Part shown: piece after piece, positions 1,398-13,671 of the stretch
Layout: every line of letters starts with the position of its first letter
Numbering within the stretch: the first letter of the stretch is position 1
Virus record (IMG/VR): IMGVR_UViG_2529293265_000015
Length of the DNA: 14,178 nt
Strand: one strand, 5' to 3'
Origin: a virus
Lineage: Duplodnaviria; Heunggongvirae; Uroviricota; Caudoviricetes
Program-made: the position numbers and the translations under genes
The notes under the pieces: generated by a model
The model's database searches: none
Told to the model about the DNA's origin: nothing
What the model saw: the letters and a program-made list of their open reading frames with translations, nothing else

Positions 1398-3251
1398 TTA
1401 TGATGATGCCGGTGCATTTATCTCCAGCACCAGACTTTCTATCTCAACGCCATACGCTGCATTTTTGGTAATATCCGTCAGCGTCAGCGCATTCAGCCCC
1501 AGTGTCAGACTGTCTTTTATGACCTGGAATGCCGGGCCAGCCACTCCATTCAGTTTCGGAGTAACCGTGGCACTGCCGGCGGTGAACACCAGCTCCAGCG
1601 TCAGCCAGTCGTTACTGTAATTCCCGAACTCGCCCAACTTTGTGTTTCCTGCTTTCTTGTGATGCATCAGATTCAGTTTGCCGTCTGTGGTCTGGGTGAA
1701 GAACGACATCAGGAACGGGTTACCAGTCCCGGTCATCGCCACGACGTCAGGTAACGCTACATCGGTATACAGATAAATTCCCAGACCGAACTGGTTGTTG
1801 GTCAGTGCGCCTGACAGTCGAAACTTACAGCTCAGTCTGCCACCCCGTGTCAGCAGGGAGACTGCGTCATCCACCGGGCGCGTCAGGGACCAGGCTTTAT
1901 TGCTCTGCTTGGTGATCTTAAATACACCATCTGACAACTGAACTCCGCCATTCTTAATGCTCCAGCCCTGCGCAGCAGCGTCTCCGGCTGTCGGCAACAG
2001 GGAGATTGTGCGTATGGATGCATCTTCAGACGGCCCCGATGGCGTGTCGCCGCCGGGCGAGGGTTTGATTTCCGGTGCCTTACCACTAATGAAGGCTAAG
2101 GTGCGACCGGCTACGTTCAGAATAGCAGTTGCCATACGATCGGGAATAATGCCACGACGCGCCCATGAGCTGAAATGCGTCGGGCGATTTGATGATACCC
2201 AGTTTTTGTTCGTTCGGGATGCCGAACCGTAATAACCAGACCCGGCAATATCAGGATCTTCTGACGGGTTGTTTGTCGGTGTATTAACTCCGCTACCATC
2301 GGTCATAAAGGGAACAAAATAAATCTGCTGGGATTCTTTACCTTTATATGCACCATATACCACTTCATATTGCGTACCGTGTTCTTGTTTCCACGCGTAT
2401 GTCGTGTCGCCACAAATCCAGGGGACTGATGCCGGACTTCCACCGTGACACTGCGCCGCCAGCCCGGCAAGGTCAGCACGGAACTGCTGTACCATTGCAA
2501 GAAATGCTGCTGGCTGCTGGGCGTAACTGGCATTCGTCATATCGAATTCCCCCTGCATCCAGCATATCGCCAGCAAAACGTTTTTCGGGTTTTTCTGCAA
2601 TGCTGCCTTCGTGCGGAAAAGCAGATCCTGATATAACGGCTTACCCACTCCCCAGCGAGCCGAATCCTGACTGGCCCCCGTGGACTCGCTGAATGTCCCC
2701 TCCGTGCCCTGGGTGAATGCCGAACCACCACAACAGCATGGTACCAGCAGGATCCCCGCATTATTAGGGATATACGGAAGCAGTTTTTTGGCAATATGTA
2801 AGCCCTGTCCGACACAGCCGTACTGCCCTTTGCTCAGGTCAGCCCGGGGATGGTTAATCGTACTCATATCCTGAACATCATGCAGACAATGGTCAGCAGG
2901 AATGATGTCGTTAAATACGCATACTTCACCACCGGGAGTCACTGTGTTACGACGGGCCAGTTGCTTAATGCGCGGATGGGGCGCATCGTATGAATCCGGA
3001 AGCGGAAGACCTTCACCGTAAGCCATGGCATTGGATTGCCCGGCCAGTACGATGACGTAGTACCACTCCGGCTCAGTTGCACCACTGACGACCACATCAC
3101 CTTCTGCTGCAATCGCCTGCATCAGGGTATAAGGGGTTATGGCCACCGGACTACCAAACGGCTGCCAGCCCTCCTTCAGTTTTTGTGTCAGTCGTTTCGC
3201 AAGGTCTGACGGCGATGCCGCCCTGACCACGTCATAGTGTTTAAATGCCAT
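1398..3251 (-). CDS. nanS-p: Prophage sialate O-acetylesterase, NanS-p-like (617 aa)
   Basis: N-terminus [21 protein letters not shown]... and the SGNH/SASA motif [14 protein letters not shown] are typical of the phage-encoded NanS-p esterases found downstream of stx in Stx phages. SD GGGAGG upstream of the ATG at 3249..3251. Confidence 0.85.
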
Positions 3252-3445
3252 GAATCCTCCCGGCCGGGATAATATTGTGAGTAAAATAAGGAGCGGGCTG
3301 AAGTCCGGAAGTTACAGGACAATGGCAGAAGAGAGACGACAGCCCGCAATTCGAAAAAGACCGCGCAGTTGCGCAGAGTGATTACTATGGGGTATTATTC
3401 GCCAGCTGAAATATTACTTCACGTTTTATTGTTTATTCCTTGCCG

Positions 3446-3474
3446 CCCGCGTCTCCCAGCGCGGGCTTTTTTTG
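3446..3474 (+). terminator. Plus-strand intrinsic terminator-like hairpin with no plus-strand gene upstream
   Basis: GCCCGCG-tctcccag-CGCGGGC followed by TTTTTTT on the plus strand. On the minus strand the same hairpin is not followed by a U-run. Confidence 0.5.
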
Positions 3475-3476
3475 CC

Positions 3477-3780
3477 CACAAGAAAACCCCTCCGGAGAGG
3501 GGCTAAAGCCGCGTATCTGTATCATCATGCACATGGTGCCGGGTGCCTCCCGGTGAGTTCAGCCCGGTGCCACTAAACCCGCGTCATTCTCGTTTTGATA
3601 ATCAGAGATTATACCGTCACCAGTCGCCCCTCCGCTCAGGGGGATTCACCATGCGAAATTTTTTTAACAAATGCCCAGTCTGACAGGCAACTGTCAACTT
3701 ACTGAATTGTGAGCAACATAGCATTTAACGGGGAACCTGTTTTCTGCAGTAAAAAGGCCCACCGGAGCGGATGGGCCTGG
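3477..3780. repeat. Non-coding tandem module, copy 1 (~304 bp)
   Basis: Aligns with 3965..4216 at roughly 75-80% identity by eye. Shared blocks: cccctccggagaggg hairpin, gccgggtgcctcccggtga, cccctccgc.cagggggattcaccatgc, ttttaacaaa, caactgtcaac, ctgaattgtgag, and a terminal hairpin plus U-run on the minus strand (3751..3777). No ORF of 60 aa or more on the sense strand. Confidence 0.75.
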
Positions 3781-3964
3781 AAGGATAGCGGTCATGTGAT
3801 GCCGGTTTCCCGGTAACTCAGCACCGGTATCTGAGTCAACGTTTTCTCTACTGGGTCATTTCCGATACGCCCTGCCTGCTGACAGGCTTTCATCACATCT
3901 GAAAATATAGCACCCTGACTGATACTGTAGTACCTAAGGTTCCAGAAACTGTGATGTATCCGGC

Positions 3965-4216
3965 ACAGAAAAGCCCCTCCGGAGAGGGCTGGAGAGTGGC
4001 GCTATGTGCCATTGCATGATGCCGGGTGCCTCCCGGTGAATTCAGTACCAGCACCTGAATCCGCGATTATCCCATATACCTACTCGCTGATTGCCCCTCC
4101 GCACAGGGGGATTCACCATGCCAGTTTCTTTTAACAAACTCCCCGCAAAACAGACAACTGTCAACCGTCTGAATTGTGAGACATTTAAAAAAAAGGCCCG
4201 CAAAAGCGAGCCAGGG
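3965..4216. repeat. Non-coding tandem module, copy 2 (~252 bp)
   Basis: Second diverged copy of the 3477..3780 module. Minus-strand terminator GGCUCGC-uuuu-GCGGGCC followed by U8 (plus 4187..4212) lies immediately downstream of the tRNA cluster. Confidence 0.75.
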
Positions 4217-4226
4217 AAAATAAGTG

Positions 4227-4303
4227 TGGCGCGTTGTACTGGATTCGAACCAGTGACCGATTGCTTAGAAGGCAATTGCTCTGTCCGGCTGAGCTAACAA
4301 CGC
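4227..4303 (-). tRNA. tRNA-Arg (anticodon UCU)
   Basis: Hand-folded cloverleaf on the minus strand: GCGTTGT acceptor pairs with ACAACGC, anticodon loop CTTCTAA, T-loop TTCGAAT, 3' GCCA. Confidence 0.8.
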
Positions 4304-4316
4304 ATGATGCAGATAA

Positions 4317-4393
4317 TGGACCGCCATCGGGGACTTGAACCCCGCGCAGCCAGCTTCGAAGGCTGGCGCTCTTTCCTGATGAGCTAATGGCGG
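4317..4393 (-). tRNA. tRNA-Arg (anticodon UCG)
   Basis: Hand-folded cloverleaf: acceptor CCGCCAT/ATGGCGG, anticodon loop CTTCGAA, T-arm CGGGG-TTCAAGT-CCCCG, 3' UCCA. Unusual C1-G72 pair and U73 discriminator. Confidence 0.7.
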
Positions 4394-4400
4394 TATGTGA

Positions 4401-4476
4401 TGGTGGCCCTTGCTGGATTTGAACCAGCGACCTGGCGATTATGAGTCGCTCGCTCTCACCACTGAGCTAAAGGGCC
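4401..4476 (-). tRNA. tRNA-Ile2/Met (anticodon CAU), ileX/ileZ-like
   Basis: GGCCCTTTAGCTCAGTGGT...CTCATAAT...GGTTCAAATCC...AAGGGCCACCA closely resembles E. coli ileX. Same Ile-Arg-Arg order as the tRNA cluster of Stx phages. Confidence 0.8.
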
Positions 4477-4516
4477 GGGAGCCGCATAATAACGACGCGT
4501 AATTAATTCTTCAATA

Positions 4517-5575
4517 TCATCCGTTCTGGCTGACTAAATCCTGTACTTCCCGAACCGTCTGCTCAAAACGTTCAGTCTCCAGCTCAACGCCAATTGCACG
4601 ACGCCCGAGCGCCAGTGCCGCTTTCACTGTCGAACCCAACCCCATGAAAAAATCTGCAATCAGGTCACCCGGACGACTGCTAGCGCTGATTATCTGCTGC
4701 AGCATTTCTGCCGGTTTTTCGCACGGATGTTTCCCGGGATAGAACTGCACCGGTTTATGCGTCCACACATCGGTATACGGCACCTGCACCGTCACGCCAA
4801 AATACCGCCGCAGATGTTTATATTCACTCAGCAGCTCCGCATACTGCCGGTTCAGTGAGGTATACGTATCCACCAGCTGGTGGTGGAGCTTTTCCAGTTC
4901 ACCACGCCGATGCTTCTCTTCTGCCACCCGGGCAAACAGCGCCTGTAATTTCAGATAATCGCTTTCATTCGGCAACTGCCACTGACCGGCACTGAACCAG
5001 TGCGACACCATGTTTTTCTTTCCTGTGGCATCTGCAATCTGTTTTGCCGTTATCCCCAGGGCAGCTCGCGCATCACGAAAGTAAGAAATCAGCGGGGCCA
5101 TCACATGCTGTTTCAGTGCACTGCCCTTCGCCGCATACCCGGCATCTTTCGGACGATACGGCCCCTGATAATGTTCCGCGAACAGAATGCGCTCTGTGGC
5201 GGGGAAATACGCCCGCAGGCTTTCCTTGTTGCATCCGTTCCAGCGTCCGGACGGCTTCGCCCAGATAATATGGTTCAGCACACTGAAGCGTTCACGCATC
5301 ATGATTTCGATATCAGATGCCAGGCGATGACCACAGAACAGGTAAAGACTTCCGGCAGGTTTCAGCACCCGCCAGAACTGCGCCAGACACTGGTCCAGCC
5401 ACTTCAGGTAATCATCGTCGCCCTTCCACTGGTTATCCCAGCCCTCAGGCTTCACTTTAAAGTACGGCGGGTCCGTGACTATCAGGTCAACAGAATTTTC
5501 GGGTAACGACCGGATAAATTCCAGGCAGTCGGCGTTGATTAACTCACAACTGGATATTTTTACAGTATTAAGCAT
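4517..5575 (-). CDS. DNA methyltransferase, beta-class (N6-adenine or N4-cytosine), solitary
   Basis: 352-aa ORF with the N-terminal catalytic motif LIVTDPPYF and a C-terminal AdoMet motif DFFMGLGST; this motif order defines beta-class amino-MTases. No restriction endonuclease gene is adjacent. Target specificity is unknown. Confidence 0.8.
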   Translation of the reverse strand: MLNTVKISSCELINADCLEFIRSLPENSVDLIVTDPPYFKVKPEGWDNQWKGDDDYLKWLDQCLAQFWRVLKPAGSLYLFCGHRLASDIEIMMRERFSVLNHIIWAKPSGRWNGCNKESLRAYFPATERILFAEHYQGPYRPKDAGYAAKGSALKQHVMAPLISYFRDARAALGITAKQIADATGKKNMVSHWFSAGQWQLPNESDYLKLQALFARVAEEKHRRGELEKLHHQLVDTYTSLNRQYAELLSEYKHLRRYFGVTVQVPYTDVWTHKPVQFYPGKHPCEKPAEMLQQIISASSRPGDLIADFFMGLGSTVKAALALGRRAIGVELETERFEQTVREVQDLVSQNG

Positions 5576-6147: not shown

Positions 6148-6969
6148 TTACCTAGTTACCTTTTTTAACTGCCGCTCAGCCCATGCTTCTTCAATATCAA
6201 ACCGGGTCACCAGCGCATCATAAAATTTCTTAACTGTTTTTTCCCATGACGCGCGTGTTATCTGGTTTGTCACCTCGCATATAGCATTAAATGCCTCCGT
6301 TGATGGTAGTCTTTCATAGCCACGACCACCACAACGCTGGCAGTCTCTGATAACAGGCATACCACGTTTTACCGACTCTTCACGATGAATGGCGACACCA
6401 CGCCCACGGCAATCCTTACAGGCGGTGGAAACCTCACCCTTTCCGCCACACTCCGGACAGGCAACTTTTACCACCTCCCTGACTTTTTTCCATTCTTCCC
6501 AGTAAGACGGATACACACCTTTCGTACACTTTGCCCATACCGGCGGCTTACCATCCGGATACTGGATCTTGTTTGTAAAAACCTCGCTTTCAATAAATTT
6601 TTTTCCGTGACAGCAGGGGCACTGTTTTTTGCTCGCCGCGCTACGGGCATAATCTTCAAACGCATACGAAGCCATAATACGCATCACTGCCGGTTTTATT
6701 TCTGCCGGGAGTTTTCTTAACGCCGCCACGCGATCACACCGACTGAGTGCATATTCTGTCAGCAATTCTGTTGCCCGCTCTCTGTCATTCATACTAATGC
6801 CCATTTTCCCAAGGAACGCAGAAACCCCCATCTCAGCCCGATTCTGTGTCATGCCCTGCGCGGCCATCACATCAGTGATACTCAGCGCATCTTTCGACGT
6901 TGAGGCCGATGCATCAGTCAGGCCGGGGGATTTTGGGGAGTAGTATTTCGGTAAATCTTCCAGTTTCAT
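6148..6969 (-). CDS. Late-gene antitermination protein Q (273 aa, zinc-finger type)
   Basis: Sits between rusA and the pR'/tR' pair. Several CxxC pairs (CPCCHGKK, CPECGGKG, CKDCRGRG, CQRCGGRG). Start overlaps the rusA stop (ATGA). Confidence 0.65.
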   Translation of the reverse strand: MKLEDLPKYYSPKSPGLTDASASTSKDALSITDVMAAQGMTQNRAEMGVSAFLGKMGISMNDRERATELLTEYALSRCDRVAALRKLPAEIKPAVMRIMASYAFEDYARSAASKKQCPCCHGKKFIESEVFTNKIQYPDGKPPVWAKCTKGVYPSYWEEWKKVREVVKVACPECGGKGEVSTACKDCRGRGVAIHREESVKRGMPVIRDCQRCGGRGYERLPSTEAFNAICEVTNQITRASWEKTVKKFYDALVTRFDIEEAWAERQLKKVTR

Positions 6970-7346
6970 TTTTTGACCTGCCCTTCAAGCATTATGGGAT
7001 AAATCTTCACCCCCAGACGTCCACCAGATACTGGCTGAGCACGAACGATATTGATTTCATCAAACTGCTCATCGTCCATTAGCAACCCCGCATGCGTCAG
7101 CGCATCCAGCGGCGCTTTCAGAATATTGTCCAGGTCACGGCGGCGCTTATCCGGTGGTTCTGCAATAATTTTTATTGCCAACCTTCCGGACAGGCTTAAT
7201 TTCAGCCGCTGCTGGCGAACAATAAGCGCCACTGCCCGGCGATAACGCTCCCCGGCTTTTGATACAAAATATGTGCTGCCACGACGACGCCAGTAAGTGT
7301 TCACCGTCGGCGGGTAAGGTAAAACAAATTCTATGCGCTCGGTCAT
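6966..7346 (-). CDS. rusA: Holliday-junction resolvase RusA
   Basis: 126 aa with PPTVNTYWRRRG near the N-terminus and the RRRDLDN catalytic motif; canonical nin-region position upstream of Q. Confidence 0.85.
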   Translation of the reverse strand: MTERIEFVLPYPPTVNTYWRRRGSTYFVSKAGERYRRAVALIVRQQRLKLSLSGRLAIKIIAEPPDKRRRDLDNILKAPLDALTHAGLLMDDEQFDEINIVRAQPVSGGRLGVKIYPIMLEGQVKK

Positions 7347-9232: not shown

Positions 9233-9388
9233 TTACTCCTCAGGTTCGTAAGCTGTGAAGACAGCGACCTCCGTCTGGCCGGTTCGAATTCGTACCTCGC
9301 AGAGGTCTTTCCTCGTTACCAGTGCCGTCACTATGACGGTTAAACAGATGACGATCAGGGCGATTAACATCGCCTTTTGCTGCTTCAT
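9233..9388 (-). CDS. hokD: Hok-family type I toxin, HokD/RelF-like (51 aa)
   Basis: MKQQKAMLIALIVICLTVIVTALVTRKDLCEVRIRTGQTEVAVFTAYEPEE is a single-TM Hok-family peptide; by recall it matches E. coli HokD (RelF). SD AAGGAG lies 7 nt upstream of the internal ATG at 9386..9388. The track ORF 9233..9445 is an in-frame upstream extension. Confidence 0.85.
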   Translation of the reverse strand: MKQQKAMLIALIVICLTVIVTALVTRKDLCEVRIRTGQTEVAVFTAYEPEE

Positions 9389-9679
9389 AGCCTGCTTCTC
9401 CTTGCCTTTCGGCACGTAAGAGGCTAACCTAGATTTGCCGTTCATAGATTGAGCCTCAGATTAATGTTAAGCGTCTTGCCGGACGCGTAATGTTAACTGG
9501 GGCTTTTCTCTATCTGCCTTTTGGTGTTCATGCCTGAGACAGATAGCCTCAAGCACCCGCTGCAATTCTACTTAACTCTCCTTTTCCCGCAAACCGTTTT
9601 TATCCCCAGCGGCAAATCGAATACACCACCAGCGCCACCGCCATCGCAATTCCTACCGTTGTTAATGCTTCAGGCCAGG

Positions 9680-10440: not shown

Positions 10441-11259
10441 TTAAGCAGCCATCTGATGATATTTTTCCCTGAAGGCTGCCGGGGAGATATTCCCCAGACG
10501 AGAGTGACGACGCTGACGATTGTAGAAAATCTCAATGTATTCCCGTATTACTGAGATGGCTTCATCCCGGTTATTAAAACGATAGTGGCTCAGGCTCTCA
10601 TTTTTCAGCGTTCCCCAGAAGCTTTCCATCGGAGCGTTGTCGTAACAGTTACCTTTACGCGACATTGATGTTTTCAGACCAGACTGCTCCTGTATGACCC
10701 GGTAATCGTATGCGCAGTACTGTGAACCTCGATCAGAGTGGTGGATTAGCCCGGCAGGTGGGCGCTGGCTCCTGAGCGCCATAAACAGGGCTTTACCTGT
10801 CAGCTCTTTTGTCATGCGCTCTCCCATGGCGTAGCCGACAATTTCGCACGTATAAACATCTTTGATGCCAGCGAGGTACAACCATCCCTCCTGTGTGGCA
10901 ACATACGTCAGGTCCGCCACCCAGACCTGATTTGGTGCTGTAGGAGCGAACGTCTGGTTCAGCAGATTTGGCGCAACTGGCAGATTGTGGTTCGAGTTCG
11001 TAGTCGCTCTGAACTTGCGTTTCTGCTTACAGTGTAGCCTTAGCTCCTTACGAAGACGTGCCAGTCGGTCACGACCAACGATGATGCCATTCTCTGCCAG
11101 CTCCGTCTGGAGCCGCCGGGTTCCATATGTTTCGCGAGTGCGGATATGTGCCACCTTAATCTCCAGTTTTAGCCGCTCATCACTTTGTTTTCTGTCTGAG
11201 GGTTCATGCTGTACCCAGTTGTAATAACCGCTCCTGGATACACCAAATACCTGACACAT
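10441..11259 (-). CDS. IS600 OrfB (transposase catalytic domain), expressed as OrfAB by -1 frameshift
   Basis: 272-aa frame with the integrase/DDE-type core (...HSDRGSQYCAYDY...NAPMESFWGTLKNE...). The orfB frame runs upstream to overlap the orfA 3' end. Confidence 0.85.
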   Translation of the reverse strand: MCQVFGVSRSGYYNWVQHEPSDRKQSDERLKLEIKVAHIRTRETYGTRRLQTELAENGIIVGRDRLARLRKELRLHCKQKRKFRATTNSNHNLPVAPNLLNQTFAPTAPNQVWVADLTYVATQEGWLYLAGIKDVYTCEIVGYAMGERMTKELTGKALFMALRSQRPPAGLIHHSDRGSQYCAYDYRVIQEQSGLKTSMSRKGNCYDNAPMESFWGTLKNESLSHYRFNNRDEAISVIREYIEIFYNRQRRHSRLGNISPAAFREKYHQMAA

Positions 11260-11294
11260 CGCTTCAATGGGAAATTGTTGTCGCCATTGTTCGA

Positions 11295-11597
11295 TTAACG
11301 CGTATTTTTCAGCGACTCCTGTGCAAAATACGCTGTTGCTTTTTTTAATATATCTCGCTCAAGGCGAGCTTCATTTAACGCCTTACGCAGTTGCAGAATT
11401 TCAGATTCCAGTTCAGCCACCGTGCGGGAACCAGGAGTACCGAGCCCTTTTCTGGCGGCGGTAACCCATTGTCCTAAAGTGCCTTCAGGAAGAGATAATC
11501 GGGAAGCGCCTTCACTGATCGAAAGTTGATTTTCAGGAACCGTTCTGACAGCTTCGGCTTTGAACTCTTTAGAGTAACGTTGGGTTTTTCTGCTCAT
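11295..11597 (-). CDS. IS600 OrfA (100 aa)
   Basis: MSRKTQRYSKEFKAEAVRTV...LERDILKKATAYFAQESLKNTR, recognised from memory as IS600 ORF1. Confidence 0.85.
   Translation of the reverse strand: MSRKTQRYSKEFKAEAVRTVPENQLSISEGASRLSLPEGTLGQWVTAARKGLGTPGSRTVAELESEILQLRKALNEARLERDILKKATAYFAQESLKNTR
11339..11346 (-). other. Programmed -1 ribosomal frameshift site of IS600
   Basis: AAAAAAAG on the minus strand, at the end of orfA where the orfB frame overlaps. Confidence 0.6.
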
Positions 11598-12051: not shown

Positions 12052-12178
12052 GCCAAATTAACAATCGGAACTTCGTGAAGAGAAAGCATAATCCAAAATC
12101 TGAATAATTAAGTTCAGCACTGTGGTGATGCTGCCAACTTACTGATTTAGTGTATGATGGTGTTTTTGAGGTGCTCCA

Positions 12179-12454
12179 GTGGCTTCTGTTTCTATCAGCT
12201 GTCCCTCCTGTTCAGCTACTGACGGGGTGGTGCGTAACAGCAAAAGCACTGCCGGACATCAGCGCTATCTCTGCTCTCACTGCCGTAAAACATGGCAACT
12301 GCAGTTCACTTACACCGCTTCTCAACCCGGTACGCACCAGAAAATCATTGATATGGCCATGAATGGCGTTGGATGCCGGGCAACTGCACGCATTATGGGC
12401 GTTGGCCTCAACACGATTTTACGTCACTTAAAAAACTCAGGCCGCAGTCGGTAA
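12179..12454 (+). CDS. insA: IS1 InsA (91 aa)
   Basis: [20 protein letters not shown]...[12 protein letters not shown] with a GTG start. Confidence 0.85.
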
Positions 12455-12876
12455 CCTCGCGCATACAGCCGGGCAGTGACGTCATCGTCTGCGCGGAAAT
12501 GGACGAACAGTGGGGCTATGTCGGGGCTAAATCGCGCCAGCGCTGGCTGTTTTACGCGTATGACAGTCTCCGGAAGACGGTTGTTGCGCACGTATTCGGT
12601 GAACGCACTATGGCGACGCTGGGGCGTCTTATGAGCCTGCTGTCACCCTTTGACGTGGTGATATGGATGACGGATGGCTGGCCGCTGTATGAATCCCGCC
12701 TGAAGGGAAAGCTGCACGTAATCAGCAAGCGATATACGCAGCGAATTGAGCGGCATAACCTGAATCTGAGGCAGCACCTGGCACGGCTGGGACGGAAGTC
12801 GCTGTCGTTCTCAAAATCGGTGGAGCTGCATGACAAAGTCATCGGGCATTATCTGAACATAAAACACTATCAATAA
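12373..12876 (+). CDS. insB: IS1 InsB frame (expressed as InsAB' by -1 frameshift)
   Basis: 167-aa frame ...[21 protein letters not shown]...[18 protein letters not shown]; the A6C slippery motif ttaaaaaactc is present. Confidence 0.85.
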
Positions 12877-12899
12877 GTTGGAGTCATTACCTACATCGG

Positions 12900-13671
12900 G
12901 GTGATGCTGCCAACTTACTGATTTAGTGTATGATGGTGTTTTTGAGGTGCTCCAGTGGCTTCTGTTTCTATCAGCTGTCCCTCCTGTTCAGCTACGGACG
13001 GGGTGGGTGCGTAACAGACAAAAGCACTGCCGGACATCAGCGCTATCTCTGCTCTCACTGACCGTAAAACATGGCAACTGCGGTTCACTTACACCGCTTC
13101 TCAACCCGGTACGCACCAGAAAATCATTGATATGGCCATGAATGGCGTTGGATGCCGGGCAACTGCACGCATTATGGGCGTTGGCCTCAACACGTATTTT
13201 ACGTCACTTAAAAACTACAGGCCGCAGTCGGTAACCTCGCGCATACAGCCGGGCAGTGACGTCATCGTCTGCGCGGAAATGGACGAACAGTGGGGCTATG
13301 TCGGGGCTAAATCGCGCCAGCGCTGGCTGTTTTACGCGTATGACAGTCTCCGGAAGACGGTTGTTGCGCACGTATTCGGTGAACGCACTATGGCGACGCT
13401 GGGGCGTCTTATGAGCCTGCTGTCACCCTTTGACGTGGTGATATGGATGACGGATGGCTGGCCGCTGTATGAATCCCGCCTGAAGGGAAAGCTGCACGTA
13501 ATCAGCAAGCGATATACGCAGCGAATTGAGCGGCATAACCTGAATCTGAGGCAGCACCTGGCACGGCTGGGACGGAAGTCGCTGTCGTTCTCAAAATCGG
13601 TGGAGCTGCATGACAAAGTCATCGGGCATTATCTGAACATAAAACACTATCAATAAGTTGGAGTCATTACC
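12900..13671 (+). mobile_element. IS1, degenerate 772-bp copy, in tandem with the first (8-bp spacer tacatcgg)
   Basis: Same terminal sequences as copy 1, but several indels and substitutions in the insA region and at the frameshift window. Confidence 0.85.
13132..13656 (+). pseudogene. Truncated InsA'-InsB fusion frame in degenerate IS1 copy 2
   Basis: Indels (cacgtattttacg...ttaaaaactacagg versus cacgattttacg...ttaaaaaactcagg) put the insA 3' part and insB in one DNA frame, while the insA 5' part carries frameshifts. Confidence 0.6.

Follow-up and report, generated by a model that had tools for sequence, protein, structure and literature searches.

An sRNA dyad at the moron site of lambdoid phages was described for EHEC prophages by Tree and colleagues (Tree et al., 2014, PMC4104026), and the AsxR and AgvB dyads, in which a short sRNA is convergent with an STnc100-type sRNA 3′ of pR′ (PMC4104026), have the same layout as the locus analysed here. 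EcOnc27 and EcOnc42 have been detected by Hfq-CRAC and Northern blotting (PMC4104026, PMC7873438, PMC7547250), the STnc100 RNAs of EDL933 by Northern blotting for one copy and by RNA-seq reads for 11 copies (PMC5331693), and PasD1 and PasD2 of EPEC by Northern blotting and RIL-seq, as RNAs of 172–173 nt with a 5′ end at GCAUGG (PMC8550237; see also bioRxiv 10.64898/2026.05.13.724894). Homologous RNAs are discrete species of 170–200 nt (PMC8550237, PMC5331693), abundant, Hfq-bound and endowed with reproducible target sets (PMC8550237, PMC4104026). Morons, in the sense of Juhala et al. (2000) as relayed in PMC4104026, are extra units with their own promoter and terminator in the phage late operon; those discussed below differ from the usual ones in that their cargo is non-coding RNA, in multiple copies, rather than a protein gene.

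The window, a stretch of 14,178 nt from a virus of the Caudoviricetes, carries in the interval 3252–4226 four small regulatory RNA genes of families already described in pathogenic E. coli; as these are known sRNA families, the observation is real but mostly ordinary. We consider it highly probable that the interval represents four autonomous sRNA genes occupying the moron insertion site in the late operon of a lambdoid prophage. An earlier note on this DNA had described a backbone of Q, tRNAs, slot, nanS-p and holin, and all of these were found – the Q protein (PF03589, 6148–6969), three tRNAs (4227–4476, ARAGORN), nanS-p (DUF1737+SASA+DUF6645, 1398–3251) and a P21-type holin (1033–1353) – but it had omitted a DNA methyltransferase (4517–5575) and a 65-aa ORF, both between Q and the tRNAs. 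ARAGORN calls the first tRNA Met-CAT, and the same gene is annotated as tRNA-Ile (ileZ) in UTI89 and Sakai. That the slot has no ORF of 60 aa or more was borne out: the longest ORF entirely within it has 53 aa, and ORFs of 77 and 68 aa involve it only because they continue into the tRNA-Arg gene. At its upstream end stands the intrinsic terminator of the tRNA Ile/Arg/Arg cluster (4187–4212, minus strand; stem 4212–4195, then a T-run), the last block common to the window and Stx2 phage Sp5 before the stx2AB position. At the other end, the nanS-p leader (3252–3376, minus strand) includes a terminator-like hairpin (3376–3361, followed by UCUUUUU) and an inverted repeat (3293–3305/3335–3347), and is conserved in Sakai Sp5, a Stx2a phage, EPEC PP6 and UTI89.

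Two diverged direct repeats with shared motifs and terminators, as the earlier note had claimed, are present in the slot. A repeat search recovered matches of 88 nt (82% identity, 3626–3713/4093–4180), 31 nt (94%, 3532–3562/4015–4045) and 25 nt (88%, 3477–3501/3964–3988) at a spacing of 467–483 nt, with TTGACAGTTG on the minus strand at 4164–4155 and 3697–3688, the hairpin ccgggaggcacccgg at 4036–4022 and 3553–3539, and the hairpin ccccctg.gcggagggg at 4110–4094 and 3643–3627. The terminator scan found four minus-strand terminator-like hairpins at 4212–4195, 3990–3972, 3778–3755 and 3504–3485, and 12 terminator-like sites in the region compared with 1.7 ± 1.2 in shuffles. The repeats are real, but each module had been drawn so as to start at a terminator belonging to what precedes it (the tRNA cluster or unit B, below); likewise there are two copies, but they are not adjacent, as the roughly 200 nt between them are a third diverged unit. 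Both modules belong to a curated, experimentally detected sRNA family of prophages, STnc100 (Rfam RF02076), which goes by EcOnc27 or sRNA103 in EHEC and is a relative of PasD1/PasD2 of EPEC, in agreement with the suggestion of duplicated small-RNA units, and with E-values of 8e-38 and 3e-28 they are not chance matches. Relative to the Rfam gathering score of 47 bits, units A and C lie above and unit B below.

Unit A is an STnc100-family sRNA gene of about 155 nt (3965–4121, minus strand; ends approximate) in which a 5′ domain of five helices leads through a linker of about 23 nt (4013–3991) to a terminator (3990–3972) and then UUUUCUGU. It matches the full Rfam model (1–206) at 4150–3961 with 123.6 bits (E = 3e-28) and our own covariance model R1 at 4124–4009 with 102.7 bits. 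Its upstream block and putative promoter (4128–4183, minus strand) begin with the repeat start CTCACAATTCAG and contain TTGACA (4164–4159) and the overlapping TTGTCT (4157–4152). The −35 is likely to be TTGTCT, followed by an 18-nt spacer and an extended −10, TGT-TAAAAG (4133–4128): TTGyCT is kept in all family members and fits the geometry of the PasD2 promoter, TTGACT-18-TAAAAA, which served as the template for promoter assignment. TTGACA was rejected as the −35, lying 25 nt from the sole plausible −10 and being lost in the PhiR5_2 copies. Promoters and transcript ends of the units were assigned by homology alone; a consensus promoter scan called none of the unit −35/−10 hexamers, which are weak matches.

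Unit C is a family member of about 174 nt (3480–3654, minus strand; linker 3531–3505, terminator 3504–3485) and matches the full Rfam model (1–206) at 3683–3474 with 161 bits (E = 8e-38), and R1 with 112.3 bits. Its upstream block and putative promoter (3661–3712, minus strand) contain TCACAATTCAG, TTGACA (3697–3692), TTGCCT (3690–3685), an 18-nt spacer and TGT-TAAAAA (3666–3661), and are homologous to the region immediately 3′ of stx2B in Sakai Sp5. Unit C is syntenic with the Sakai STnc100 gene at 4423–4628 of the Sp5 segment compared (L004), is the positional orthologue of EcOnc27/sRNA103 of Stx2 phage Sp5, and is separated by about 230 nt from nanS-p, which follows on the same strand. Units A and C are 75–84% identical in scaffold and terminator, 42% in the variable arm and 50% in the linker.

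The third, strongly diverged STnc100-like unit between them, unit B (about 3898–3750, minus strand, about 148 nt), had been missed. It scores 30.1 bits against Rfam STnc100 (3922–3749, E = 2.7e-4), under the cut-off, and 26.5 bits against R1, a model built without it (3901–3789, E = 4e-5). R1 also finds unit B alleles at the same relative position in two other prophages (L002 and L128). It has a closing helix AUGUGAUG/CAUCACAU, the hairpins CCUGUC-AGCA-GGCAGG and CCGG-GAAA-CCGG, a linker (about 3800–3779) and a terminator (3778–3755, then UUUUU). Among the alleles the extended −10 block is exact and the CCGG-GAAA-CCGG hairpin and terminator are kept; the first hairpin is kept through one compensatory and two one-sided changes, and in the second allele one closing-helix pair is broken. 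The candidate extended −10 promoter is TGcTATATT (3904–3912, minus strand), for which the sequence offers no good −35; the allele of CRE1493 and PhiR5_2, at 86% identity, has the GGGTGCTATATTTTC block unchanged and diverges directly upstream of it. Unit B occurs in 673 of 5426 E. coli genomes.

The fourth gene, also absent from the earlier note, is a plus-strand sRNA gene (3369–3473, from a terminator scan, folding and a match to an EPEC sRNA). A putative promoter (TTGCGC at 3369–3374, an 18-nt spacer, TATTAT at 3393–3398), overlapped by the nanS-p leader hairpin 3376–3361, would yield an RNA of about 69 nt (about 3405–3473), and EPEC coverage suggests that a longer form is possible. Single-stranded CCUUGCC lies just 5′ of the terminator hairpin (3445–3466), which is followed by U7, and the fold is stable relative to shuffles (z = −3.6). 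The gene is near-invariant among diverged phages and occurs in 1124 of 5426 E. coli genomes. By match to the RIL-seq sequence and seed it is the EPEC ‘E2348C_1409.E2348C_1408.IGR’ sRNA of the EcOnc42/EcOnc08/EcOnc21 family, described in EHEC 3′ of stx1AB in Sp15. In EPEC the sRNA captures GGCAAGG/GGCAGGG sites, such as cfa and dppA. The EPEC RNA is near-identical through seed and terminator and lies upstream of nanS-p in the matching place and orientation, and an alignment of 3369–3473 with EPEC PP6 shows scattered substitutions only, with CCUUGCC and terminator kept; the identity with EHEC EcOnc42 is taken from the EPEC authors’ note. With AsxR of Sp5 this gene has the upstream sequence and the TTGCGC −35 in common, but the RNA body is unrelated: AsxR (RF02703) and AgvB (RF02702) had no match in 3340–3490 even at E ≤ 10, a search that recovers AsxR in Sp5 at 88 bits, and membership of either family was rejected. 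FnrS or GcvB sponge activity cannot be assumed for the plus-strand RNA. A match to OmrA-B (25.2 bits against a 40-bit cut-off) was likewise rejected, because terminator and U-tail drive the score. The 3′ end of unit C (about 3480, minus strand) abuts that of the plus-strand sRNA (3473), giving a convergent pair between Q and the holin.

The common structure of the STnc100 units is argued from covariation, since single-sequence folding is weak compared with shuffles (z = −1.5, −1.1 and −2.1) and the minimum free energy (MFE) structure of unit A does not give the family fold. Folding each unit had been proposed in the earlier note; the MFE structure of unit C has the family architecture and that of unit A does not, and the covariance model matches both. 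The 13 members compared come from Escherichia, Atlantibacter, Raoultella, Kosakonia and Enterobacter; 93.5% of their cells pair, compared with 42–47% with slid partners, and nine base pairs have changed on both sides. The consensus retains the closing helix, CCCCU/AGGGG, the variable arm, GGGU-CAG/CUG-ACUC and CCGGG/CCCGG, and RNAalifold independently finds the same helices. In E. coli, Atlantibacter and Raoultella the family keeps its place between Q and the lysis cassette, and some members also occur outside any late operon at the Kosakonia and Raoultella scottii loci, the latter directly upstream of a small lipoprotein ORF. Neighbours vary: stxB lies upstream in Sp5, a holin downstream of PasD1, and the UTI89 and CRE1493 members adjoin a truncated nanS-p and iraM, respectively. 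The EPEC PP6 member is split by ISEc13. A contig scan with the 14-mer TGGTGAATCCCCCT hit at least 120 stretches, almost all of them fortuitous and from unrelated phyla, and is no gauge of taxonomic spread; a profile scan recovered seven real, Rfam-confirmed family members among the matches listed for the 14-mer. Unit B here, together with PasD, points to cryptic family members below the Rfam cut-off.

Comparison with the described relatives places the units closely. EcOnc27 (sRNA103 in EDL933) has the five-helix architecture and terminator of units A and C and the position of unit C, upstream of nanS-p and 3′ of the moron site, and is likewise convergent with a short sRNA; its locus differs in having a single gene with stxAB upstream, where the window has three tandem paralogues and no stxAB, and the linker between 5′ domain and terminator of the Sp5 copy differs from those of the window. 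PasD1 and PasD2 of EPEC E2348/69 share the 5′ end GCAUGGUGAAUCC..., promoter layout, length (about 172 nt) and a location between Q and a sialate esterase or holin, and score 34–41 bits against STnc100 models, like unit B; they differ in their seed UGUGAG, which is not in units A, B or C, and in lacking the canonical CCGGGAGGCACCCGG hairpin and having a long U8 tail. Units A, B and C end in short, interrupted U-tails (4–5 U, compared with 8 U in PasD), which may weaken Hfq binding.

The earlier note had identified the interval as the canonical stx slot. In the Sakai Sp5 segment, 2615–3057 corresponds to window 4627–4186 (91.7% identity), with the same hairpin between argO and stx2A, and the order in Sp5 is tRNAs, terminator, stx2AB, STnc100 and convergent AsxR. 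The note had proposed to check whether stxAB sits at the homologous position in Stx prophages; by the comparison with Sp5, stx2AB would map to window 4185–3713, where units A and B stand. The slot claim applies only to unit A and the middle unit. Unit C is a constant neighbour, found immediately 3′ of stxB in Stx phages under the name EcOnc27, and the plus-strand sRNA is likewise found there. The flanks align to Sp5, but nothing in the window corresponds to the 1.33-kb stx2 cassette. Stx2a phages carry a single unit; the window, UTI89, PhiR5_2 and CRE1493 carry the A–B–C trio, kept as a block in prophages just 77% identical overall (PhiR5_2, CRE1493). UTI89, S88 and ATCC 11775 are among the carrier strains. 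Part of the interval is matched in about half of the complete E. coli genomes and the three-unit form is present in about 12%; none covers more than 70% of the window. The position of the Shiga toxin genes holds regulatory-RNA cargo in ExPEC-type prophages, with one STnc100 gene as a fixed neighbour of the stx site, and this explains an apparently empty stretch of about 1 kb in a very common prophage backbone, for which RefSeq has either no annotation or a spurious pseudogene, such as the 126-nt ‘hypothetical protein’ fragment annotated in the homologous UTI89 segment.

The units belong to the family, have a conserved structure, contain promoter-like and terminator elements and are syntenic with those of Stx phages, and the most likely mechanism is that they act as self-contained units, or morons; presence or absence between conserved flanks is seen directly, promoter and terminator at the level of sequence. 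Units A, B and C would be tandem STnc100 paralogues on the late (minus) strand, each with its own sigma-70 promoter and intrinsic terminator, a five-helix 5′ domain beginning at the transcription start and a short, poorly conserved single-stranded linker as the presumed seed, and the plus-strand RNA of about 70 nt, with CCUUGCC as its seed, would converge on unit C to form a dyad. By analogy with the homologues, each gene would in a lysogen be transcribed from its own promoter to its own terminator; the RNAs would act in trans, bound to Hfq, on mRNAs of both host and horizontally acquired origin, different linkers giving the three paralogues different target sets; and after induction Q-modified polymerase from pR′ would pass all terminators into nanS-p and the lysis genes. 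The novelty implied by the earlier note does not hold, as the family, the moron-site location and the convergent partner have been published since 2014 (PMC4104026, PMC7873438); the additions made here, the tandem trio and its cryptic middle unit, are minor.

In the 900 bp that precede nanS-p there are six terminator-like hairpins on the minus strand, seven times as many as shuffled sequence would lead one to expect. Together with the place between Q and the lysis genes that the family keeps in E. coli, Atlantibacter and Raoultella, this would also suit units that serve mainly as a cis insulator, a stack of terminators that halts polymerase in the lysogen and yields only to its Q-modified form, with the RNAs as by-products. 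We think this unlikely as the main role: terminators need neither a covarying domain of about 120 nt with loops invariant across genera nor unit-specific promoters, the homologues are abundant and Hfq-bound with reproducible targets (PMC8550237, PMC4104026), and the Kosakonia and Raoultella scottii members are not in a late operon. An insulating effect is compatible with the sRNA role as a secondary one. The sRNA genes may also not all be intact, and mosaic prophage late regions, with a family member split by ISEc13 in EPEC PP6, make it conceivable that one or more, chiefly unit B with its missing −35, sub-threshold Rfam score and broken closing-helix pair, are decaying pseudogene copies, now without function, that stem from duplication and recombination between prophages; we hold this to be improbable, as the two unit B alleles (86% identical) retain the −10 block, both hairpins and the terminator, and the trio persists as a block in prophages 77% identical overall.

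The proximity of unit C to nanS-p (about 230 nt upstream, same strand), and that of the Raoultella scottii member to its lipoprotein ORF, might be taken to indicate a cis-acting leader, attenuator or riboswitch for nanS-p, a reading we regard as very improbable: unit C’s own terminator and a convergent sRNA gene stand between it and nanS-p, the family adjoins unrelated genes, and homologous RNAs are discrete species of 170–200 nt. The leader units offered as an option in the earlier note are likewise not supported, as every unit comes with promoter-like and terminator elements of its own and with helices that compensatory changes have kept across diverged alleles and genera; nor is its alternative of a remnant left by moron loss, the units being themselves moron-type cargo. 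That the region is a degraded protein-coding gene, a remnant of stx or of another ORF, is scarcely credible despite the RefSeq pseudogene fragment in UTI89. The search for stx remnants that the note had called for was negative: tblastn with Stx2A and Stx2B gave nothing in the slot, every match having E ≥ 0.55 and lying elsewhere, and no internal ORF exceeds 53 aa. The AUG common to units A and C lies within the closing helix and has not been conserved in the other genera, its ORFs extend past the terminators, and a 1-nt indel separates related copies. The same observations led us to reject small ORFs as an explanation of the units.

Returning to the four sRNA genes, two possible extensions concern the 5′ domain and the promoter. 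With its near-invariant loops and two GGAGG/GGA-containing hairpins, kept in at least five enterobacterial genera, the 5′ domain (about 120 nt) could be a functional module of its own that binds a protein, the ribosome or a small ligand, the array then being a dosage or combinatorial device; we offer this as a speculative and rather doubtful idea, which if true would lie beyond the published model of Hfq-dependent seed pairing. Ribosome-footprint enrichment on several EDL933 STnc100 copies (PMC5331693) would fit such binding through Shine–Dalgarno-like motifs. Finally, HUS-associated polymorphisms (+90 T/C and +103 ΔT) are on record some 90 and 103 bp 3′ of stx2B (PMC12711010), and on the promoter assignment proposed here, with a numbering uncertainty of 1–3 nt, these changes would fall in or next to the −10 and discriminator of the EcOnc27/STnc100 promoter.

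By ORF, tRNA and domain annotation, the window carries on its minus strand a lambdoid prophage late region, running from RusA (6966–7346) and antiterminator Q (6148–6969; PF03589) through a 65-aa ORF, an N6/N4 DNA methyltransferase (4517–5575) and three tRNAs (4476–4227) to the interval under study (4226–3252), nanS-p (3251–1398; DUF1737+SASA+DUF6645) and a P21-type holin (1353–1033). The earlier note gave this order correctly, omitting only the 65-aa ORF and methyltransferase from the Q-to-tRNA stretch. The first tRNA is Met-CAT by ARAGORN and tRNA-Ile/ileZ in the UTI89 and Sakai annotations. The two non-coding modules described in that note are true direct repeats, matching over 88, 31 and 25 nt (82%, 94% and 88% identity, respectively) at a spacing of 467–483 nt, with the TTGACAGTTG blocks, both named hairpins and, by terminator scan, all four minus-strand terminator-like hairpins where they had been placed; the region holds 12 terminator-like sites vs 1.7 ± 1.2 in shuffles. 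As claimed, no ORF of 60 aa or more lies within the interval (longest internal, 53 aa), and two marginal ORFs, of 68 and 77 aa, arise solely by extension into tRNA-Arg. RefSeq annotation of the homologous UTI89 segment is blank apart from one 126-nt pseudogene call.

Both modules are small-RNA genes, one of the readings offered in the note: unit C, nearer nanS-p (3683–3474, minus strand; 161 bits, E = 8e-38), and unit A, nearer the tRNAs (4150–3961, minus strand; 123.6 bits, E = 3e-28), match Rfam family STnc100 (RF02076) over its full length, above the curated cut-off of 47 bits. In EDL933, 11 STnc100 copies have RNA-seq reads and one was shown by Northern blot (PMC5331693), while the copy directly 3′ of stx2B in Sakai prophage Sp5 is the Hfq-bound sRNA EcOnc27, or sRNA103 in EDL933 nomenclature (PMC4104026, PMC7873438, PMC12711010). 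EPEC PasD1 and PasD2, 172–173 nt and detected by Northern and RIL-seq, are considered relatives (PMC8550237; bioRxiv 10.64898/2026.05.13.724894). A 14-mer scan of species-representative genomes was largely noise, with at least seven real STnc100 members among the matches listed. The seven we added, from Atlantibacter, Raoultella (two species), Kosakonia (two species) and Enterobacter, all exceed the Rfam cut-off, and phage lysis genes adjoin three (Atlantibacter subterraneus, Raoultella ornithinolytica, Enterobacter pasteurii).

In an alignment of 13 sequences, standard pairs occupy 93.5% of cells vs 42–47% with the 3′ partners slid, nine pairs are changed on both sides, and RNAalifold independently recovers identical helices; the RNA therefore consists of a conserved five-helix 5′ domain, a linker of ~25 nt and a terminator. 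Identity between units A and C is 82% in the closing helix 5′ strand and first hairpin, 75% in the distal hairpins, 84% in the terminator, 42% in the variable arm and 50% in the linker. In PasD the corresponding linker holds, immediately 5′ of the terminator, the RIL-seq seed UGUGAG (PMC8550237), which is absent from units A, B and C. Some non-Escherichia members occupy non-prophage-looking settings (Raoultella scottii, locus L064, 2944–3192; Kosakonia oryzendophytica, L105/L015; Kosakonia sacchari, L123); a small lipoprotein ORF directly follows one of them and several have no obvious terminator, which hints that the conserved 5′ domain may exist without the sRNA-type 3′ module.

The ~200 nt separating the two modules is no mere spacer. 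It holds a sub-threshold Rfam STnc100 match (3922–3749; 30.1 bits, E = 2.7e-4), our unit B, which a covariance model built from 13 family members, with unit B and PasD left out of training, detects at 3901–3789 (26.5 bits, E = 4e-5); PasD1 and PasD2 score 34–35 bits with this model. In alignment the unit B closing helix is preserved with changed letters (AUGUGAUG...CAUCACAU for GCAUGGUG...CACCAUGC), the first hairpin is CCUGUC-AGCA-GGCAGG, the CUCAG...CUGAG hairpin is retained and the CCGG-GAAA-CCGG hairpin is a shortened form; a terminator follows at 3778–3755 (minus strand). Unit B alleles are also detected between both strong units in phage PhiR5_2 and strain CRE1493 (20.4 bits), and of 5426 complete E. 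coli genomes 673 carry unit B, in one of two allelic forms (≥99% and 86% identical). Both alleles share the GGGTGCTATATTTTC block (extended −10), with diverged sequence immediately 5′, and both have a terminator; first-hairpin pairing survives three changes, one compensatory and two one-sided. That hairpin contains GGCAGGG (3871–3877, minus strand), which ranks first among RIL-seq target motifs for the EPEC homologue of the plus-strand sRNA described below (seed CCUUGCC); with ~0.1 occurrences expected in the interval, this could be chance.

Promoters and ends were assigned by homology to PasD2, whose 5′ end maps to GCAUGGUG, 7 nt 3′ of TAAAAA, with TTGACT 18 nt further 5′ (PMC8550237). On the minus strand, unit A would have TTGTCT (4157–4152), TGT-TAAAAG (4133–4128) and ends at ~4121 and ~3965; unit C, TTGCCT (3690–3685), TGT-TAAAAA (3666–3661) and ends at ~3654 and ~3480; and unit B, no convincing −35, TGcTATATT (3912–3904) and ends at ~3898 and ~3750. 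The −35 of units A and C is probably the second half of the conserved block rather than the TTGACA of the note, since TTGACA is separated by 25 nt from the −10 and has been lost in the PhiR5_2 copies, where TTGyCT is retained. HUS-associated polymorphisms have been reported ~90 bp (T/C) and ~103 bp (T deletion) 3′ of stx2B (PMC12711010). If the promoters are assigned as above, these would fall in or adjoin the predicted EcOnc27/STnc100 TGT-TAAAAA −10 and TTT discriminator (~4437–4451 in the Sp5 record, numbering ±1–3 nt).

Two other readings in the note, a leader and a remnant, find no support: the units have their own promoter-like and terminator elements, their helices are kept by compensatory changes, and tblastn found no stx remnant in the interval. 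Family membership, conserved structure, these elements and synteny are direct observations; by extension from homologues, each unit would be a self-contained transcription unit active in the lysogen, its RNA would bind Hfq and act in trans, divergent linkers would give the paralogues differing targets, and during lytic growth Q-modified polymerase would pass the terminator stack. A role for that stack as a cis insulator is compatible with action in trans, but leaves the conserved 5′ domain unexplained.

A convergent gene abuts the 3′ end of unit C on the plus strand, with a promoter-like element (TTGCGC-18-TATTAT, 3369–3398), a strong terminator (3445–3466 + T7) and a predicted RNA of ~69 nt. 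In the Stx2a phage, PhiR5_2, UTI89 and EPEC PP6 it is conserved far above the flanking sequence; it occurs in 1124 of 5426 complete E. coli genomes, and matches the EPEC RIL-seq sRNA 'E2348C_1409.E2348C_1408.IGR'. CCUUGCC in the window is the complement of the target motif of that sRNA, GGCAAGG/GGCAGGG (cfa, dppA, tir and others). The EPEC authors equate that sRNA with EHEC EcOnc08/21/42, of which EcOnc42, 3′ of stx1AB, is confirmed by Northern and Hfq-CRAC (PMC4104026, PMC7873438, PMC7547250). Identity with AsxR or AgvB was rejected for want of an Rfam match. The RNA nonetheless looks, from sequence, like a cassette-type alternative to AsxR of Sp5 at one locus, because it occupies the AsxR position and shares its upstream sequence and −35. 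The nanS-p leader carries an inverted repeat (3293–3305/3335–3347) and, overlapping the −35 of the plus-strand gene, a further minus-strand terminator-like hairpin (CUGCGCAACUGCGCGG then UCUUUUU, 3361–3376); the hairpin, kept in Sakai Sp5, the Stx2a phage, EPEC PP6 and UTI89, could be a nanS-p attenuator or part of promoter control. In PP6 of EPEC E2348/69 the STnc100 unit is split by IS4-like ISEc13 (526–601 and 2151–2303 of the PP6 locus), and the adjacent plus-strand sRNA, the one detected by RIL-seq, is intact.

Sp5 2615–3057 aligns with window 4627–4186 (91.7%) through the tRNAs and post-argO terminator, and alignment resumes at the STnc100 promoter (Sp5 4394–4942, window 3712–3144), continuing into nanS-p. 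Between these blocks lies a 1.33-kb stx2 cassette without a window counterpart, so that the strict stx position is window 4185–3713, that is, units A and B. The 'stx slot' of the note thus applies to these two; unit C and its plus-strand partner occur in Stx phages too, the one Stx2a-converting phage studied closely having a single unit 3′ of stx. Units A and C and the plus-strand RNA are members of curated families already known, as is their arrangement, and what is added to published knowledge is the array of three paralogues at the stx position, cryptic unit B and the identity of the convergent partner. Of 302 matching phage records, PhiR5_2 alone covers ≥80% of the interval; the complete E. 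coli genomes (n = 5426) include 2728 that match it in part and 353 that match over ≥80%, and it is 99.4% identical in the ST95-type ExPEC UTI89, S88 and IHE3034 and in type strain ATCC 11775. In CRE1493 (2394–2729 of its locus) the A–B–C trio precedes an opposite-strand iraM (anti-adaptor) and a nanS-p that is truncated, a further cargo variant of this moron site.

Beyond the interval, a hok/sok type I toxin–antitoxin module (9233–9558; Hok/Gef ORF, 9233–9445, PF01848; sok RNA, 9383–9558, RF01794, 112 bits) precedes the DUF968/RusA/Q genes. The early prophage region is interrupted at 10441–11597 and 12150–13660 by an IS3-family element (orfA/orfB, rve domain) and a pair of adjacent IS1 copies (InsA/InsB). 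Every complete E. coli genome searched covers at most 70% of the window, which points to an IS-rich mosaic prophage, perhaps of a Shigella-like host, as its source.
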